Part shown: one piece after another, positions 14,772 to 26,348 of the stretch
How positions within the stretch are numbered: position 1 is the first letter of the stretch
Layout: every line of letters begins with the position of its first letter
Source: a virus
Lineage: Duplodnaviria > Caudoviricetes
DNA: 26,348 nucleotides
Direction: 5' to 3' (one strand)
IMG/VR virus record: IMGVR_UViG_3300011339_000515
Coordinates: 1 to 26,348 of that record
Position numbers and translations under genes: made by a program
The notes under the pieces: model-generated
What the model was told of the DNA's origin: nothing
Databases searched by the model: none
What the model saw: the letters and a program-made list of their open reading frames with translations, nothing else

Positions 14772-14957
14772 ATGAAACACGCGCAGGCAGACTACATCAA
14801 TGCAGGGTACAGGTACGAGAAGGCGGACAACGCCAACAAGGCTCGTGCTATGGCTGAGACCATTCGCAAGATGCTCCAAGAGGAACACATCACAGACCAG
14901 ACTGACGCACGCTTCTTTGTTGAGCGCGGTCGTAAAGAGGCAAGGGAGACAGCATGA
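14772..14957 (+). CDS. Hypothetical protein (61 aa)
   Basis: Start MKHAQADY after the GAAAGCGAATC motif; ATGA overlap downstream. Confidence 0.65.
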   Translation: MKHAQADYINAGYRYEKADNANKARAMAETIRKMLQEEHITDQTDARFFVERGRKEARETA

Positions 14958-15268
14958 AAGCCGACCACATCATCAACAACATAGTCACTCAACGCATGGA
15001 GTGCAGGCATTGCGGCTTTACGCAAGCCCTCAAAATGCCAGCCCCTGTTGATGCCATCTTAGGTGAGATGGATGCCTTCCTAGAGGCTCACAAGGATTGC
15101 AAACCACCACAAGCGGAGGCAGTAATGTCTGACTACATCAAAGGCTTTGACGCGGGCTACAGCTACGTCCTGAACGAGATTGAGCAGTATGCCAAAGCGT
15201 ATAGGGGAGACAAGTTGCCCTTCGCCGAGTTGCTCTATCACCTCAAGATGGAAGGCAAGCCTCAATGA
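14954..15268 (+). CDS. Hypothetical protein, possible Zn-binding (CxxC...HxxC)
   Basis: ECRHCG...EAHKDC; coupled to the MTase gene by ATGA. Confidence 0.65.
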   Translation: MKADHIINNIVTQRMECRHCGFTQALKMPAPVDAILGEMDAFLEAHKDCKPPQAEAVMSDYIKGFDAGYSYVLNEIEQYAKAYRGDKLPFAELLYHLKMEGKPQ

Positions 15269-16290
15269 GATTCATTGAGTTGTTTGCAGGCATTGGCGGG
15301 TTCCGTTTAGGGTTGGAGCAGGCGGGACACCAGTGCGTGTGGGCAAACGAAATATTAGAAAAGCCAAGGAGGATTTATGAGCGGAACTTTGGACACCAAC
15401 CTGACCCAAGAGACATTAGAACTGTTCGACCCGACGACATCCCCGATGCCGAACTTTTATGCGGCGGATTCCCGTGCGCGACTTTCAGTGTTGCTGGAAA
15501 GCGCTCTGGATTCTCGACAGAAGATACTCGCGGTACTCTCTTTTTTGAAATCTGTCGCGTTCTCAGAGACAAACGAATACCTTATGTTTTCCTTGAAAAC
15601 GTCAAAGGACTCCTCAACCACGATGGGGGAAGAACCTTTGCTGTCATCATCGCAAGTCTTGATGAACTGGGGTACGACGTTCAATGGGAAGTTGTTAACA
15701 GCCAGAATTTCGGAGTCCCGCAACATCGGGAAAGGGTATTCGTTGTCGGACATTTTAGAGACCGACCCAGACCCCAAGTATTTCCTCTCGGACTCTGCGT
15801 TTCAGAAGATGTTCTCGAAAAAGAAAAAGGAGCGCAAGGAGAAGTTCGAGGAGGGGAACCCGAATCAGGACGACCTGTTCTCATGCCTTTCGTAACGGGT
15901 AAGGTGATGCAGTTCAAGGACGTGTTCCCTACGCTTGACGGTCATTACTGGAAGGGTATCCAAAACAATCAGGGGCGCGGTGCTGTTATGCAGGTTCGCC
16001 CAGTGTTGACACCTCACCGCGAAGAGAAGAGACAAAACGGTCGTCGTGTCAAAGACCACAACGAGCCAGCGTTCACGTTAACCGCTCAAGACAGGCATGG
16101 CGTCATCGTTGGCGAACGCTTGCGTAGGCTCACGCCGCTTGAGTGCGAACGTCTTCAGGGGCTACCCGATAACTTCACCAAGTTCTACGAGGACGGCACG
16201 CTAGTCAGTGACGCAGAGCGTTACGAGCGATGCGGTCGTACCGTCACCATTCCAGTCATCTACGAAATTGCAAAGAGGTTCCCGTTATGA
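15265..16290 (+). CDS. C5 DNA cytosine methyltransferase (Dcm-like), probable carboxymethyltransferase variant
   Basis: Motifs I LFAGIGG, IV GGFPC, VI ENVKG, VIII QHRERVF, IX RRLTPLECERLQG; motif X reads CGRTV instead of the usual GN[SA]V. Confidence 0.92.
   Translation: MRFIELFAGIGGFRLGLEQAGHQCVWANEILEKPRRIYERNFGHQPDPRDIRTVRPDDIPDAELLCGGFPCATFSVAGKRSGFSTEDTRGTLFFEICRVLRDKRIPYVFLENVKGLLNHDGGRTFAVIIASLDELGYDVQWEVVNSQNFGVPQHRERVFVVGHFRDRPRPQVFPLGLCVSEDVLEKEKGAQGEVRGGEPESGRPVLMPFVTGKVMQFKDVFPTLDGHYWKGIQNNQGRGAVMQVRPVLTPHREEKRQNGRRVKDHNEPAFTLTAQDRHGVIVGERLRRLTPLECERLQGLPDNFTKFYEDGTLVSDAERYERCGRTVTIPVIYEIAKRFPL
15377..15895 (+). CDS. Nested +1-frame ORF, putative MTase beta-type polypeptide
   Basis: 172 open codons inside the MTase gene, containing SLKTSKDSST...MNWGTTFNG...SLSDILETDPDPKYFLS, resembling the alternate-frame beta chain of M.EcoHK31I as I recall it. 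Confidence 0.55.
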   Translation: MSGTLDTNLTQETLELFDPTTSPMPNFYAADSRARLSVLLESALDSRQKILAVLSFLKSVAFSETNEYLMFSLKTSKDSSTTMGEEPLLSSSQVLMNWGTTFNGKLLTARISESRNIGKGYSLSDILETDPDPKYFLSDSAFQKMFSKKKKERKEKFEEGNPNQDDLFSCLS

Positions 16291-16943
16291 GTTCATGGAC
16301 GTTTGAGACGCCAGAGATTGCCGCAGGCTTTGATGCCCATGTGCGTGAGCAACTGCCTTGGTATGACATGGTGACCGACGCGGTGGTGTACATCACGCGC
16401 AACTACCTGACAGAGTATGGTGGCATAGTGGACATAGGCGCATCAACGGGGAACATGGTGGATAAACTTCTGCCGCTTGTTTCCGAACGCTCTGCGGACA
16501 TTGTGGCAATTGAAAAAAGCGTGCCGATGTTCAACGTGTTGGAAAAAAAATACAGGCACAGCGATTGCGTTGTTACGGAAAATGTAGATGTGACCAACTC
16601 TCAACTGCCAAAGGCGGATGTGTACATTGTGTTCCTGACAATGATGTTCCTGCCCATCGAAAGCCGCAAAGCCTTAATCAACTCCATGAGGGCGAATTGC
16701 AAGCGTGGTGGAGCCATAGTGGTGGTGGACAAGGTTTGTGACCACGGCGGGTACTTTGCGACCGTCCTGAAGCGTCTCACGATGCAGTTCAAGCTACAGC
16801 AAGGAGTCAAGCCAGAGGATGTGCTGAACAAGGAGATGAGTCTTGCTGGGGTGCAGATACCCCTTGACCCCGCCATGCTGGGGGAGGACGCCAAGCTGTT
16901 CTTCCGTATGGGTGAGTTTGCTGGCTGGGTAATTGAGCGTTAG
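16287..16943 (+). CDS. cmoA: CmoA-like SAM-dependent enzyme (carboxy-SAM synthase family)
   Basis: Start MSSWTF at ATGA overlap. WTF...FDAHVREQLPWY, VDIGASTG, LTMMFL...RKALI...GGAIVVVDK parallel CmoA (WTFD..F.DMI.RSVPGY, YDLGCSLG, FTLQFL...R..LL...GGALVLSEK). Confidence 0.8.
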   Translation: MSSWTFETPEIAAGFDAHVREQLPWYDMVTDAVVYITRNYLTEYGGIVDIGASTGNMVDKLLPLVSERSADIVAIEKSVPMFNVLEKKYRHSDCVVTENVDVTNSQLPKADVYIVFLTMMFLPIESRKALINSMRANCKRGGAIVVVDKVCDHGGYFATVLKRLTMQFKLQQGVKPEDVLNKEMSLAGVQIPLDPAMLGEDAKLFFRMGEFAGWVIER

Positions 16944-21596: not shown

Positions 21597-24500
21597 ATGG
21601 CTGACGCAAAGAAGATACTAGGTGGACTCGGCAAGGTGGGTAAGCGCCTGTTGGCGACTGATGACGAGGCGTCGTTGAATGCAATTCGAGCCGCAGGTCG
21701 CGCCGCTCATGAGCAAGAAGCCGCTATCCGCGCCGCTAAGAACGCTGAGGTCAAGGAGCAGATGGCAAGATTGCCTGCCCGCAACAAGAAAGCCAACGAG
21801 GCTTTAGGTTTATATCACCCAGTAGGTGGCGGTCTCAAGCTGTCCAAGCCCACGTCAGGTATGCACGCAACAACCGTGGCTGACCCTAAGTTCAACCCTC
21901 CAGACATTGGCATCATTACGCCTGAGCAGTTGGTCAAAGAGGAGGCGGCGTTGTTCCCCTTGGTTGGTGACCGAGCCGCTGGTGGTCGATACCTCACCCA
22001 CGTTGACGAGAACGAGTTGGAGATTCCTGTCAGGTTGACGGGAGGCCCTCGTTACATGGATGCGAACTACAACCCCATAACCCCTGATGACTCAGCCGCA
22101 TGGGAGTCTGGGGCTGGTCGTGTGACTGCGTTAGGTAAGCAGGCTGAACGCGCAGGGCAAGGCGGTCGACCCGTTTACGGTATCTACACCGCAGGCTCAG
22201 GTACGAACACTGACTTCAACATAATGGGCGCGAATGCGTTGTATCAACAGATTGCACAAGGCAAGATTACAAAGAAGGCGGAGCGGGAGTTTGACAGAGC
22301 GATGAAGGAGGGGACGAAAGAGTTTCCGCCCATCCCAAATTGGCCGGGCATCCGAAGCCCTGAAGCCTACGAACTCTTGCTTGACAAAAGCAACGGCATC
22401 GCCCGCACCAAGCTGTTTGGCGTGATGGGCAAAGAGAACTTTCAATCAATGGGCTTTCCTGATGTACCTGCCACCCGCAAAGCCATCATTGAACCTGAGT
22501 TGCTTGATGTGCCGACCAACCAAGCTGGCTTCAGGCTGGCGCGAATGGATACTACTGGGCGCATCATTGAAAACCCAAACATTCCATCCGACTACCCTAA
22601 AGCAATGGCTGGCAAGGTTGCAGGCAGGCTGGATGTACCCGCAGACTACAAAGACATCTTCCAGTCTCACTTCGACGCCCGCCGCTTGCTGAGTCAACCA
22701 GAGTCAGGCGACTACTATTCTTTCTCACGCGCCCATCCTATTCAGTATGCCGACGACGCTTGGCTCAACAGGCTGATGGAGCAACGCCTTGCCACCGAGC
22801 GCAAGATTAAAGAGGGCGAGTACAAGGAAGGCGGAACCGTCGACATCAGCGAAGCAGATAAGCGACTCGCAAAGGCAATCGAAAACCGAATGGCTAAAGG
22901 TGGAGCAGTTGACCTCGAAGCCGCTGACGCTAGACTGCAAGCCGCTATCGACGCCCGCATGGGCATGGCTGATGGTGGCAAGGTAATCAAGGGCGCGGCT
23001 AAAGCGTTCAAGAAGCTATTTGCTGATGACGTGGTAAATGGAATGCGTATCAGGCAGGATATTCCAAACCAATCTTCAATTGGCGCATCCTTGACTGACT
23101 ACTCTACGCATGGTTTGCAAGAAGTACCAATGAGCGCCTTTGAGACTGTTGGCAAGCCAAGATACAGAAGCGTTCAAGAAGAGAAGCGCACCAAAGAGTT
23201 GGCGCGACAAATCCAAGAGAACAAAGAACTGAACCCTCTGATTGTTGTGAGGGACGCCGAGGGTCACTACATCCTTGAGGGCGGTCATAGGTTCGATGCG
23301 CTGAGGGAGTTGGGTATAGATTCCTTCCCTGCTCTGATGGTGCATGACTTAGAGTCCTTGGGAACTCTTGCCAAAGCCGACGGCGGAAAGATTGTCAAGG
23401 GGGCAAGCAAGGTATTCAAGAAGCTATTTGCGGATGCCCCGCAGGTTGATGCTCTCAAGCTGGCGCAAGAACGCGCCGCTCTGCCCGTGTCCCAAGGCGG
23501 CTTGGGTTTGCCCAAGAACAACACTGCGGAGCAAAGAGCGAAGGCGATGGGCTTTGACCGCGACACCTATCACGGTTCGTTCCGCGACATCAAGAAATTT
23601 GACCCTAGCGTCGGCTCAACTGAGAGCCACGCAGGCAAGGGCATCTACTCGACCGACTCACCAGAAGACGCAAGCCGCAACTACGCCAGCATCTATGGCC
23701 CCGACGTGAGCGGCAGGGTTGAGCGCGGCATGGAGCAGAGAGATAAAGACTTTCGCAAGATTCATGGTCGCATGAGGGATGAGGTTTTGACGCCGCGCCA
23801 GCAAGACATCATCTTGCGCAACACGGTTGGCACAGACAACCTTGGGGTTGTTTACCCATTGAAGATTCGCTCCAACAAGTCCATCCATCTCGATGCACCT
23901 GAGTCAGACCCAGTAAGGATTGGCCCATTTGAGCATTACGACGAAGCGTCTGAAACTTATGTAGATACGCCACACACCCCAAAGTTCAATGAGGCTTTGG
24001 ATGAATTTAGGGAACTTGGTGGTGATGCCAACCCAGTCTATGAAACTGTTCAGGACTACGGTGGCCCAATCCCTGCGCGTGATGTATTCAATGCCGTCAA
24101 GAAGACTGGCAACGAAAGCGGTTTGTACGACCCCTTCACTGGCGACATCGTGTCTGGTGGTGTAGCGGCTGGCGACTTTGTGAAACACTTCGGCATTGAC
24201 GAAATCCGCCACACTCCAAGGTTTATGAACCACGAGTTGAACATTGGCAAAGAACACACAATCAGCTTTGACCCTGACAACGTGCGCTCACGCTTTGCGG
24301 CGTTTGACCCGTTCCGCAGGTCGGCGGCTACTGCGGCGTTAATGGGTGTCGCGGCTCCTGACCTGCTGGCAAAAGAAGCCAAGAACAAGAAGAAAGCCCA
24401 CGGTGGCTTGGCTATGGCTAAGGGCGGGAAGTTGGCGGCAATAGGCAAGCTAGGCAAACGCTTGCTGGCTGACCCTGACGCCGTAACCCCTTCTGTCAGT

Positions 24501-26348
24501 GGCGGAACCCGCAAGTTTGGGAATGATGCCAATGGACTCAACATCATCAAGGAGACTGGTGGTAATTGGTTTCCGTCTGGTGAATTGGTTTATCAGTCCC
24601 AACTTGACCGCGAGTTAGACAAACTCAAAAAAGGAAGATTTGATACGCCTATCAATGTTCTTAGGTATCACATGGAGCAAGATGCGCTTGCTGGTAACAC
24701 AGCGCGTAAGGCTCAGATGGAGCAGGCTCTTGCGCAAGCGTTGAAGACGGAAGCCGCAAACAAGTGGATAGATTCAAACTTACGCAACTACGTTACCAAG
24801 CAGATGGCGACCAAGGACGACCCTGTACGAAAGCTGGCTGACGAAGGCATTAAAGCGTTCCCCGTAAACGTAGATGAATTTGATGAGCCTCAGTTGCGCA
24901 CTTATGGAAGCTACAACTCCAAAATGAAAAGAGAAAAAGCGGGCTTACCAAAAGAAGGCGTTGCTAAATCTCCTCTGGCAAAACATTATGAGACATTGGC
25001 TGATGAGGCGATTAACCCAGTTGACGCCAAGCATTACCAACGCATACAAGATTTGCCAAGGAATCAAAGACCAGCGTATACGATGGATATGCCTTGGGTG
25101 AACAAGTTAGACCCAGAGACACCCATCTATTCGTTAGACAAAGACGCTGACCTCAATAAGCTAGGCTTTGACCACATCATGGATGTCTTGCGTGAAGACC
25201 TTGCCGCTGGTCGCATTCGTCCAGAGCAAATGAACAAGATAAGCATGGAGCAGGCGGTGCGTCGCACGCATGAGTATGACGAGGCGCTGAAGGAAAAGAT
25301 GCTTAACGCAAGGATTGCAGAGCAGGCTAACGCTAACGTGTTCAAGGAGTATCCAGAGGGGTACAAGTGGGTGCAGTTAGATAAGCCGGGGCAGTTCAAC
25401 CTTGAGTCCGACATCATGGGTCACTCTGTGCGTGGGTACGAGCCACCACAAGGTCATCCAGATTGGTCTGACATTTCTGGCAACTCAGGTTACAAAGACT
25501 ACGGTCACGGCGGCTATGAGGCTATCAAGTCAGGAGACGCCAAGATTTACTCTTTGCGCGACCCCAAAGGAATGTCTCATGTAACGGTAGAGGTCGGGCC
25601 TAACGACCACTTAGATTACAACGACTGGTTCAAAAAGCAACCAGAAGAAATCCAAAACAAAATTGCTAAACGAAGATTGGATGATAAAAATCACGACATC
25701 TACTCAGGCCCAGAATATCTTGCAGACCGTGGAAAAATCTTGCCAAAAATTACTCAAATCAAAGGTAAGCAGAACGCCGCGCCCAATGAGAATTACTTGG
25801 AATTTGTCCAAGACTTTGTAAAGAGTGGTGATTGGTCTGAGGTGGGCGACCTTAGCAACACAGGGTTGCGTGATGTTAAGTTTATGACCAACCCAGACGT
25901 ATATCAAAAATATTTGGAGCGCGGATTGAAAGTTCCCAAGTACGCCACCGAAAAAGAGTTGGACGAATTGCATAACGAATATTTGCGTTTGGCAGAACCG
26001 CGCAACTACAAGCCACCAGCAGAAGGCATGGCTGAAGGCGGTGGCGCATTTAAGAAACTACAGTTCATGGGTGGGGGCGGCATCACCACTACGGCTGGCA
26101 CGTTTTCCCCTGAAGAGTTGGGTGTTGAAGCCAGCGACCTCGGTATCAGCGACAAGCGCATGAACCAAATCAAGCGCAACGCCGCAGACTTATGGGGTGA
26201 AGGTAAAGAACAACTTGAAAAAGAATACAAGCAACTTGGTCGTAAGGGAGGTAAGAAAGACTTTGCTCTTCGTGTTGGCTCCCAATTCCTTGGCGGTGGC
26301 TCAGACCTCGTCAATCTAGGCTTGGAGGGCATTGACCTGATACAAGGC
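21597..26348 (+). CDS. Very large multidomain (polyvalent) protein, 3'-truncated: unknown module + ParB/Srx-like + ADP-ribosyltransferase-like + PcfJ-like + further module
   Basis: Manual translation from ATG 21597 (2 bp after terL stop) gives 1584 codons with no stop to the window end. ParB/Srx: NPLIVV...YILEGGHRFDALRELG (~23200-23345). ART-like: YHGS...GKGIYSTDSPEDAS.NYA...VYPLKIR...FDPDNVRSRFAAFD (~23540-24310). PcfJ-like: ESDIMGHSVRGY...IYSLRD...HVTVEV...ITQIKGKQN (~25340-25820). Confidence 0.85.
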   Translation, partial: MADAKKILGGLGKVGKRLLATDDEASLNAIRAAGRAAHEQEAAIRAAKNAEVKEQMARLPARNKKANEALGLYHPVGGGLKLSKPTSGMHATTVADPKFNPPDIGIITPEQLVKEEAALFPLVGDRAAGGRYLTHVDENELEIPVRLTGGPRYMDANYNPITPDDSAAWESGAGRVTALGKQAERAGQGGRPVYGIYTAGSGTNTDFNIMGANALYQQIAQGKITKKAEREFDRAMKEGTKEFPPIPNWPGIRSPEAYELLLDKSNGIARTKLFGVMGKENFQSMGFPDVPATRKAIIEPELLDVPTNQAGFRLARMDTTGRIIENPNIPSDYPKAMAGKVAGRLDVPADYKDIFQSHFDARRLLSQPESGDYYSFSRAHPIQYADDAWLNRLMEQRLATERKIKEGEYKEGGTVDISEADKRLAKAIENRMAKGGAVDLEAADARLQAAIDARMGMADGGKVIKGAAKAFKKLFADDVVNGMRIRQDIPNQSSIGASLTDYSTHGLQEVPMSAFETVGKPRYRSVQEEKRTKELARQIQENKELNPLIVVRDAEGHYILEGGHRFDALRELGIDSFPALMVHDLESLGTLAKADGGKIVKGASKVFKKLFADAPQVDALKLAQERAALPVSQGGLGLPKNNTAEQRAKAMGFDRDTYHGSFRDIKKFDPSVGSTESHAGKGIYSTDSPEDASRNYASIYGPDVSGRVERGMEQRDKDFRKIHGRMRDEVLTPRQQDIILRNTVGTDNLGVVYPLKIRSNKSIHLDAPESDPVRIGPFEHYDEASETYVDTPHTPKFNEALDEFRELGGDANPVYETVQDYGGPIPARDVFNAVKKTGNESGLYDPFTGDIVSGGVAAGDFVKHFGIDEIRHTPRFMNHELNIGKEHTISFDPDNVRSRFAAFDPFRRSAATAALMGVAAPDLLAKEAKNKKKAHGGLAMAKGGKLAAIGKLGKRLLADPDAVTPSVSGGTRKFGNDANGLNIIKETGGNWFPSGELVYQSQLDRELDKLKKGRFDTPINVLRYHMEQDALAGNTARKAQMEQALAQALKTEAANKWIDSNLRNYVTKQMATKDDPVRKLADEGIKAFPVNVDEFDEPQLRTYGSYNSKMKREKAGLPKEGVAKSPLAKHYETLADEAINPVDAKHYQRIQDLPRNQRPAYTMDMPWVNKLDPETPIYSLDKDADLNKLGFDHIMDVLREDLAAGRIRPEQMNKISMEQAVRRTHEYDEALKEKMLNARIAEQANANVFKEYPEGYKWVQLDKPGQFNLESDIMGHSVRGYEPPQGHPDWSDISGNSGYKDYGHGGYEAIKSGDAKIYSLRDPKGMSHVTVEVGPNDHLDYNDWFKKQPEEIQNKIAKRRLDDKNHDIYSGPEYLADRGKILPKITQIKGKQNAAPNENYLEFVQDFVKSGDWSEVGDLSNTGLRDVKFMTNPDVYQKYLERGLKVPKYATEKELDELHNEYLRLAEPRNYKPPAEGMAEGGGAFKKLQFMGGGGITTTAGTFSPEELGVEASDLGISDKRMNQIKRNAADLWGEGKEQLEKEYKQLGRKGGKKDFALRVGSQFLGGGSDLVNLGLEGIDLIQG

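Follow-up and report, generated by a model that had tools for sequence, protein, structure and literature searches.

A predicted carboxy-SAM synthase and cytosine carboxymethyltransferase with a nested gene and exchangeable cassettes in a tailed-phage contig

The stretch of DNA analysed here (the window) is a 26,348-base virus contig that makes up the entire record IMGVR_UViG_3300011339_000515. It carries two overlapping genes that are predicted to modify cytosine in phage DNA, one encoding a C5 cytosine transferase and the other a CmoA-like protein (Table 1). Since terminase subunits, a DnaB-like helicase, a primase zinc finger, RusA and a transglycosylase protein are also encoded, the window is, judged by its genes, part of a tailed phage. 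A complete 55.5-kb relative (G001, locus L146) aligned to 65% of the window length with ~80% identity. No cultured phage was close (the best terminase match was 52%), and a genome scan for the host found no prophage closer than 55%.

Table 1. Features of the predicted cytosine-modification locus, in window coordinates
Feature	Position	Strand	Basis
C5 cytosine transferase, GFPC type with motif-X Arg, CmoX-like; predicted carboxymethyltransferase main chain	15265..16290	+	PF00145
AAGGAGG ribosome-binding site	15366..15372	+	4 nt before the ATG of the nested gene; sequence
Nested +1-frame gene, 172 aa; probable second transferase chain	15377..15895	+	Open frame and conservation
Catalytic Cys71, motif IV GGFPC	15475..15477	+	Aligned with HhaI and SpCmoX PC motifs; 24/24 invariant
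Cassette 1, residues 208-243	15886..15993	+	Weak likeness to M.SPR-only cassette; CCGG-like by elimination
Cassette 2, residues 244-282	15994..16110	+	Cassette common to M.SPR, M.phi3T, M.rho11s and M.H2; predicted GGCC
Arg325, motif X	16237..16239	+	Column of SpCmoX Arg350 / HhaI Asn304; 24/24 invariant
ATGA stop/start overlap	16287..16290	+	Sequence
CmoA-like protein, 218 aa; predicted carboxy-SAM synthase, REQLPW / KEMSL subfamily	16287..16943	+	PDB, fold, NCBIfam
Glu183	16833..16835	+	Column of E. coli CmoA Arg199 and SpCmoA Glu188

As described for Synechococcus phage S-B43, CmoA makes carboxy-S-adenosylmethionine (carboxy-SAM, Cx-SAM), CmoX carboxymethylates cytosine in GC sites and CmoY adds glycine (PMC12783734); the original prediction for the window had rightly mentioned that a phage pair of CmoA and a carboxymethyltransferase had been published. 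In the S-B43 CmoX (SpCmoX), Arg350 replaces Asn304 of HhaI and binds the carboxymethyl group of Cx-SAM (Yang et al., Nat Commun 2025, PMC12783734). The same account reports that wildtype SpCmoX accepts Cx-SAM only, that its R350N variant is inactive with both cofactors and that the CmoX product blocked HhaI; its set of 5,615 candidates required both SPPC and R350 (PMC12783734). Our literature search for natural DNA carboxymethylation found only Yang et al. (2025) and work on engineered enzymes.

The window transferase (341 residues) belongs to the C5 DNA methylase family (PF00145, E = 1.9e-77), and its catalytic motifs were all intact when aligned with 24 relatives. Its top match in the PDB was M.HhaI (E = 5e-53), with SpCmoX (8YF3) reaching merely 6e-16 at 27% overall identity. 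Motif X reads YERCGRTV, as originally predicted, and its CGT codon encodes Arg325 at a column occupied by Asn in M.HhaI and M.SPR. Since G-R was found in motif X of 120/120 best homologues, this Arg does not reflect a sequencing error. The SpCmoX cofactor contacts F25, E47 and D69 correspond to F7, E29 and D50 of the window enzyme. Motif IV is GGFPC (GGFPCATF in 118 of the 120 homologues) and not the SPPC required by Yang et al. (2025), and motif IX (RRLTPLECERLQGLPD) is located in the main chain. Among 150 C5 representatives obtained by 50% clustering, the motif-X position was Asn in 128, Arg in 6, and Asp, Met and Leu in one each (13 were unparsed); the related enzymes with Asp, Met or Leu are P0148, P0184 and P0187.

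The transferase and CmoA-like genes overlap by ATGA, as had been noted, the ATG at 16287 falling in the stop codon at 16288-16290. Since an upstream open reading frame (ORF; 14954-15268) overlaps the start of the transferase gene in the same manner, this arrangement by itself says little, and the coupling of the two genes was established instead by co-occurrence across loci. Among 54 loci collected from the transferase side, a CmoA-like neighbour was present at 48 of the 49 with an Arg-type enzyme, the remaining one ending within 700 bp; two loci had Asn-type enzymes without CmoA, and three were cut and unreadable. Of 80 loci collected from the synthase side, 64 had a readable C5 enzyme, in every case with the Arg (61 of the window type and three of a GSPC/YNALGR type), one had a cut C5 enzyme and 15 showed no C5 gene. 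In the pooled loci, with 287 parsed genes, CmoA was nearby in 178/200 Arg-type genes, and 21 of the 22 exceptions lacked flank. Conversely, none of the 86 Asn-type genes had a CmoA neighbour, 74 of them having room on both sides. After thinning at 90% identity, CmoA stood beside 28/28 Arg-type and 0/17 Asn-type genes, and the pattern recurred in three Arg groups. The Fisher p of 6e-10 for this linkage is overstated, as the genes counted are related to one another and some were collected through CmoA. The association between motif-X Arg and CmoA-like neighbours that the original prediction proposed to look for was thus present. A third Arg lineage (GSPC, YNALGRS; L062-L064, L253-L262) was found beside Asn-type relatives with YKALGNS, and CmoA occurred with its Arg members only.

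The best PDB sequence matches of the CmoA-like protein were three CmoA/YecO chains, with BelI ranking fourth. Its structural model (predicted local distance difference test score, 91) has the lid-helix CmoA fold; the top folds were CmoA/YecO (template modelling score [TM] 0.86-0.87; Z 26.5; Foldseek and VIA), with a root-mean-square deviation of 2.4-2.5 over 213-215 residues. Its best NCBIfam match, TIGR00740, scored 55.1 bits, under the 193.3-bit equivalog cut-off; since the proven CmoA of S-B43 (SpCmoA, 115.6 bits) also falls under it, this failure is uninformative. We aligned 89 non-redundant synthases of 138 sequences, that of the window included. Residues F20, F28, Y39, G64, F137, K165 and K198 of E. 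coli CmoA were invariant in 89/89, and the S-adenosylmethionine (SAM) contacts Y39, D62, G64, S66, D89, D117 and the acidic residue 164 correspond to Y26, D49, G51, S53, E76, D101 and D148 of the window protein. The account of E. coli CmoA that lists these SAM contacts describes a salt bridge from Arg199 to the carboxylate (PMC3663124).

The original prediction had set NKEMSL opposite QKRSML of E. coli CmoA and VFLTMMFL opposite LNFTLQFL, and our alignment agrees (E183 = R199; F116 = N132). The possible change of cofactor that it drew from these two segments was not supported: the proven SpCmoA itself has E188 at R199 and L122 at N132, and the argument from R199E and N132F was dropped. Arg199 occurs in only 4 of the 89 synthases, each with Met at column 31, where the remaining 85, SpCmoA and the window protein included, have His. 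SpCmoA (R192) and 13 others carry an Arg one helical turn after 199 (column 203), which the window subfamily is without. This subfamily, ~71 of the 89, has its own conserved R20, E21, Q22, W25, M120, R163 and Q190. Window-type transferases are not tied to this subfamily: SpCmoA-like synthases (34-39% identity to SpCmoA) stand beside them at L107, L109, L112-114, L118 and L145, and an R199-bearing synthase of the E. coli type stands beside a window-type GFPC-Arg transferase at L111. In Moraxella phage Mcat8, a published-type SPPC CmoX adjoins a window-type synthase. Three synthase types are thus exchanged among the transferases in both directions. R199-type CmoA genes also occur with no C5 enzyme within 4 kb in Alcaligenes phage Afa-NA1 (L082), near an adenine methylase, and in Erwinia phage Y3 (L088), adjoining an asparagine-synthase-like gene and an oxygenase.

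The transferase gene contains a further gene nested in its +1 frame; neither this gene nor the modular cassettes described below had been noticed in the original prediction. This frame was open for at least 150 codons in 61/62 Arg-type GFPC genes (61 of the 63 rows so classed, with a misfiled SPPC gene, that of Mcat8, taken out of the total) vs 1/62 SPPC genes, and the +2 frame was open to that extent in 0/63. In a synonymous control, 172 codons were reached in 0.5% of 5000 random versions; since these averaged 96 codons, the openness is partly built in, and conservation is the stronger evidence. Across 24 relatives the nested protein has 26 invariant columns, for example L-E-x-x-P-D-x-K-Y-F-L-S, where the main frame varies. 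It also holds an L-x-D-I-L-E...K-Y-x-L segment that single-chain enzymes of the SPR type have in the main frame; none of the 63 Arg-type GFPC rows has the LxDILE segment there. Together, these results suggest that the nested gene probably encodes a second transferase chain, which would bind the main chain. Since some Asn-type relatives also have the nested frame, it is not specific to carboxymethylation. Recoding of the transferase gene would erase the nested frame, so that an experiment with a recoded gene could give a false negative. The C-terminus of the nested protein (15871-15895) reads QDDLF (QMSLF, QMDLF or QLGLF in relatives), which presumably resembles a sliding-clamp-binding motif.

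The transferase carries a variable region built from cassettes. M.SPR, according to a published description, methylates GGCC, CCGG and CC(A/T)GG (bioRxiv 10.1101/2020.03.09.983320). The top phage match of the variable region was M.SPR (61% over 68 residues, E = 1e-20), and residues 220-339 of the transferase were 50% identical to it. Cassette 2 scored 143-149 against the cassette shared by M.SPR, M.phi3T, M.rho11s and M.H2, vs shuffle maxima of 38-47. We take all four of these enzymes to methylate GGCC, and on that premise GGCC is the predicted target of cassette 2. As for a GC target like that of SpCmoX, the cassette points to GGCC, and GCGC is hardly depleted (184 vs 212 expected). Cassette 1 scored 47 against residues 310-330 of M.SPR (maximum of 200 shuffles, 34) and gave nothing above shuffles in five other reference enzymes. 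By elimination, we presume that the SPR-only cassette is for CCGG, and a second site such as CCGG is weakly suggested for cassette 1. Our literature search found no paper assigning the SPR/phi3T cassettes to targets. The cassettes are exchangeable within the family: ten arrangements were seen among 121 members, and the genomes G001 and G003 are 91% identical with different cassettes.

The window is poor in several sites. GGCC occurs 21 times vs 111 expected and CCGG 8 times vs 54 expected, and GATC, GCWGC, CCWGG and GGWCC are all at zero. This avoidance is consistent with several restriction systems in the host. The palindromes missing from related phages differ from phage to phage, which reads as a record of the restriction systems of their hosts.

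No hypermodification ligase was found among the 28 window ORFs scanned or in the open-ended last ORF, as the original prediction had stated. PF00733 was absent from the related genomes G001, G002 and G004 and present in the positive-control genomes G006 and G007. G001, whose transferase is 96% identical, had no ligase family among 64 ORFs of at least 80 residues, and five further records gave 0/5. The asparagine-synthetase-like ligase of the full CmoA-CmoX-CmoY system is thus missing from the window and from G001 and G002, of which the latter two are complete. Of 80 related loci, 15 have a ligase with 35-38% identity to SpCmoY between the transferase and synthase genes, and a carboxylate handle is therefore implied. 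G002 and G007 share 87% identity across two thirds of their length, yet only the latter has the ligase, which therefore appears to come and go. Plain 5-carboxymethylcytosine (5cxmC) was, in the published account, not detected in S-B43 DNA (PMC12783734). The comparison with relatives suggests that plain, unconjugated 5cxmC is the likely end product in the window phage; relatives with CmoY would proceed to the amide.

We then considered the origin of the motif-X Arg. In trees from which the motif-X columns were dropped throughout (LG+G4 without mixture; the long-branched L091 excluded from the 99- and 45-row trees), the Arg-type GFPC enzymes formed one well-supported group (98/100). In core identity the window's type averages 54% to Asn-type methyltransferases vs 34% to SPPC CmoX, and free trees placed the window's group and the SPPC enzymes apart; E-R-x-G-R is common to both. 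A joint clade of the two was rejected in neither approximately unbiased (AU) test (p-AU 0.13 on 45 rows and 0.96 on 99 rows, the constrained tree of the 99-row test outscoring the quick free search by 73 log units). A single clade of all Arg-type enzymes was rejected on 46 rows (p-AU 1.4e-4) and on 45 rows (8e-38), but not on 99 rows (0.10). The GSPC/YNALGR lineage alone was clearly separate from the window's group (p 4e-4, 45 rows) and, in these trees, makes the best case for a separate Asn-to-Arg origin. An origin of the window's Arg separate from that of SpCmoX is not established, as the joint clade with SPPC enzymes was never rejected. An apparent chimera, P0241, joins a window-type N-terminal half to a C-terminal half of the SPPC-CmoX type, which suggests recombination between the two groups.

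The position of Arg325 in the column of SpCmoX Arg350, the CmoA fold as the best match of the second protein and the Arg-CmoA linkage together uphold the original prediction of a carboxy-SAM synthase paired with a cytosine carboxymethyltransferase. We consider it probable that the CmoA-like gene makes carboxy-SAM and that the Arg-type C5 enzyme carboxymethylates cytosine in phage DNA, which would block host restriction; the chemistry is assigned by homology to S-B43 CmoA and CmoX. The synthase would convert SAM and prephenate to Cx-SAM. The transferase, together with the nested protein as its partner, would flip the target cytosine, Cys71 would attack C6 and Arg325 would hold the carboxylate of Cx-SAM, leaving 5cxmC at GGCC and perhaps at a second site. 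Sites so marked would be shielded from restriction, from which we infer an anti-restriction purpose, and the carboxymethyl group may also escape nucleases that depend on 5-methylcytosine (5mC).

Several observations weigh against this interpretation. The loci behind the linkage are redundant and related, and those on the synthase side hold CmoA by construction. A CmoA-linked lineage of staphylococcal phages (L083:4672-5679, L091:5497-6504) has Gly in motif X. The window is a 26-kb fragment, and a ligase could lie outside it. Site depletion did not track the cassettes when 39 loci, thinned from 90, were tested (p 0.11 for GGCC and cassette 2; p 0.053 for CCGG and cassette 1), and G003, which is without cassette 2, is GGCC-poor (30 of 198 expected) like G001. 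A pooled first look in which GGCC depletion followed cassette 2 thus failed both on the thinned loci and in G003. Since depletion does not follow the cassettes, it neither confirms nor refutes the targets. Two further points concern the synthase: it is just 21% identical to SpCmoA, and its subfamily has neither R199 nor the column-203 Arg, the candidates for holding the carboxylate being R20, R163 and H18.

These last points, together with the conserved residues of the subfamily's own and the carboxylate-holding role of Arg199 described for E. coli CmoA (PMC3663124), could mean that the product of the window-type synthase is some SAM derivative distinct from carboxy-SAM and that the two-chain, swappable-cassette transferase writes a new cytosine base. 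Both the cofactor and the DNA base would then be new, and the modified sites programmable. However, SpCmoA likewise has Glu at 199, is also hydrophobic at 132 and shares the His of the M31 column, the synthase types are exchanged among transferases both ways, and SpCmoY-like amide ligases, which need a carboxylate, accompany the window subfamily. We therefore regard a different cofactor as quite improbable, a small chance of another product being left because the subfamily is without either of the known arginines. It is still less probable, in our judgement, that the transferase is an ordinary 5mC methyltransferase or inactive, with an incidental neighbour. Its core is closer to Asn-type enzymes than to SPPC CmoX, and ATGA overlaps are common in the window operon, but the Arg does not vary and its linkage to CmoA is tight, no Asn-type gene adjoins CmoA, the catalytic motifs are all intact, and SpCmoX is described as taking Cx-SAM only (PMC12783734). 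The second gene could also encode a carboxyl O-methyltransferase of the CysG/BelI or CmoM type, the carboxymethyl group derived from host Cx-SAM being capped as a methyl ester. CysG and BelI are the next-best folds (TM 0.78-0.80, Z 24-25) and are nearly as close as CmoA (Z 25.0 vs 26.5), with BelI fourth by sequence. CmoA chains nevertheless come first by sequence and by fold, the gene occupies the slot of SpCmoA-type and R199-type synthases, and the amide ligases that co-occur would compete for the same carboxylate, which makes this the most remote of the explanations considered.

If the carboxy-SAM interpretation is correct, natural DNA carboxymethylation would extend past the SPPC family into the classic scaffold of multispecific phage methyltransferases. 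Carboxymethyltransferases with longer sites are named as an engineering goal by Yang et al. (PMC12783734), and the family would be a natural source of them, with cassettes exchanged between near-identical phages. There would also be phages with plain 5cxmC as the final base and a CmoA subfamily with a different carboxylate-binding residue.

Other CmoA-associated loci differ from that of the window. The Gly-type L091 locus also carries CmoY. At L070-L079, L284-L310 and L087 (Gordonia phage Evaa), several CmoA-like subtypes lie beside a 500-residue fusion of a double ParB and a class I methyltransferase, which has the motifs DFGAG and SVLNSVPF, lies near the terminase and has no C5 enzyme in its flank. 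Among loci found from this fusion, CmoA was nearby in 26/27, and a fold search of the ParB-fused transferase returned generic class I methyltransferases and ParB alone (best E 7.5e-5). The fusion is a candidate for a second class of carboxymethyltransferase; Yang et al. (2025), in their published account, found no N6/N4 enzyme with CmoA (PMC12783734). Elsewhere in these phages, G001 has a beta-ketoacyl synthase gene among its virion genes (L146:12759-13871), and the open-ended ORF of the window (21597-26348, at least 1584 residues) directly follows the large terminase gene and has a weak ParB-like stretch at residues 508-586.

The window system resembles the S-B43 CmoA-CmoX-CmoY system (PDB 8YF3) in that a CmoA homologue adjoins a C5 homologue with motif-X Arg, and the two share the PC catalytic motif, the cofactor contacts and a Glu at the R199 column of the synthase; CmoY of the window's relatives is 35-38% identical to that of S-B43. 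It differs in having GFPC and not SPPC, which places it outside the 5,615-candidate filter as published, in its low identity (27% for the transferase and 21% for the synthase) and in its X-A gene order. In addition, it has modular cassettes in place of a GC-specific domain, a nested gene, and no CmoY in the window or G001. The multispecific enzymes of Bacillus phages SPR, phi3T, rho11s and H2 likewise have a variable region built from cassettes, the last of which is held in common, whereas theirs have motif-X Asn, no nested frame and the LxDILE segment in the main chain.

M.EcoHK31I, which requires a nested second chain for activity, is like the window enzyme, judging from its published description, in that this chain lies wholly in another frame inside the main gene (PMC2836561). 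Unlike the arrangement in the window, where the main chain retains motif IX and the segment following motif VIII is found in the nested protein, its beta chain carries motif IX, and M.EcoHK31I is a SAM-dependent methyltransferase. In the engineered M.MpeI N374K, as mentioned in PMC12783734, a basic residue also replaces the motif-X Asn; that enzyme is engineered, has Lys instead of Arg and is CG-specific. With E. coli CmoA (4GEK, 4IWN) and H. influenzae YecO (1IM8), the window synthase shares the fold and Y39, D62, G64, S66, D117, F137, K165 and K198, with D89 as Glu and E164 as Asp. It differs from E. coli CmoA in having Glu for R199 and Phe for N132, in missing the C-terminal helix (~8 residues), and in its partner, a DNA enzyme and not CmoB. 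The predicted chemistry is already known, and the scaffold, the cassettes, the nested chain and the ligase-free form go beyond the system as Yang et al. (2025) describe it.

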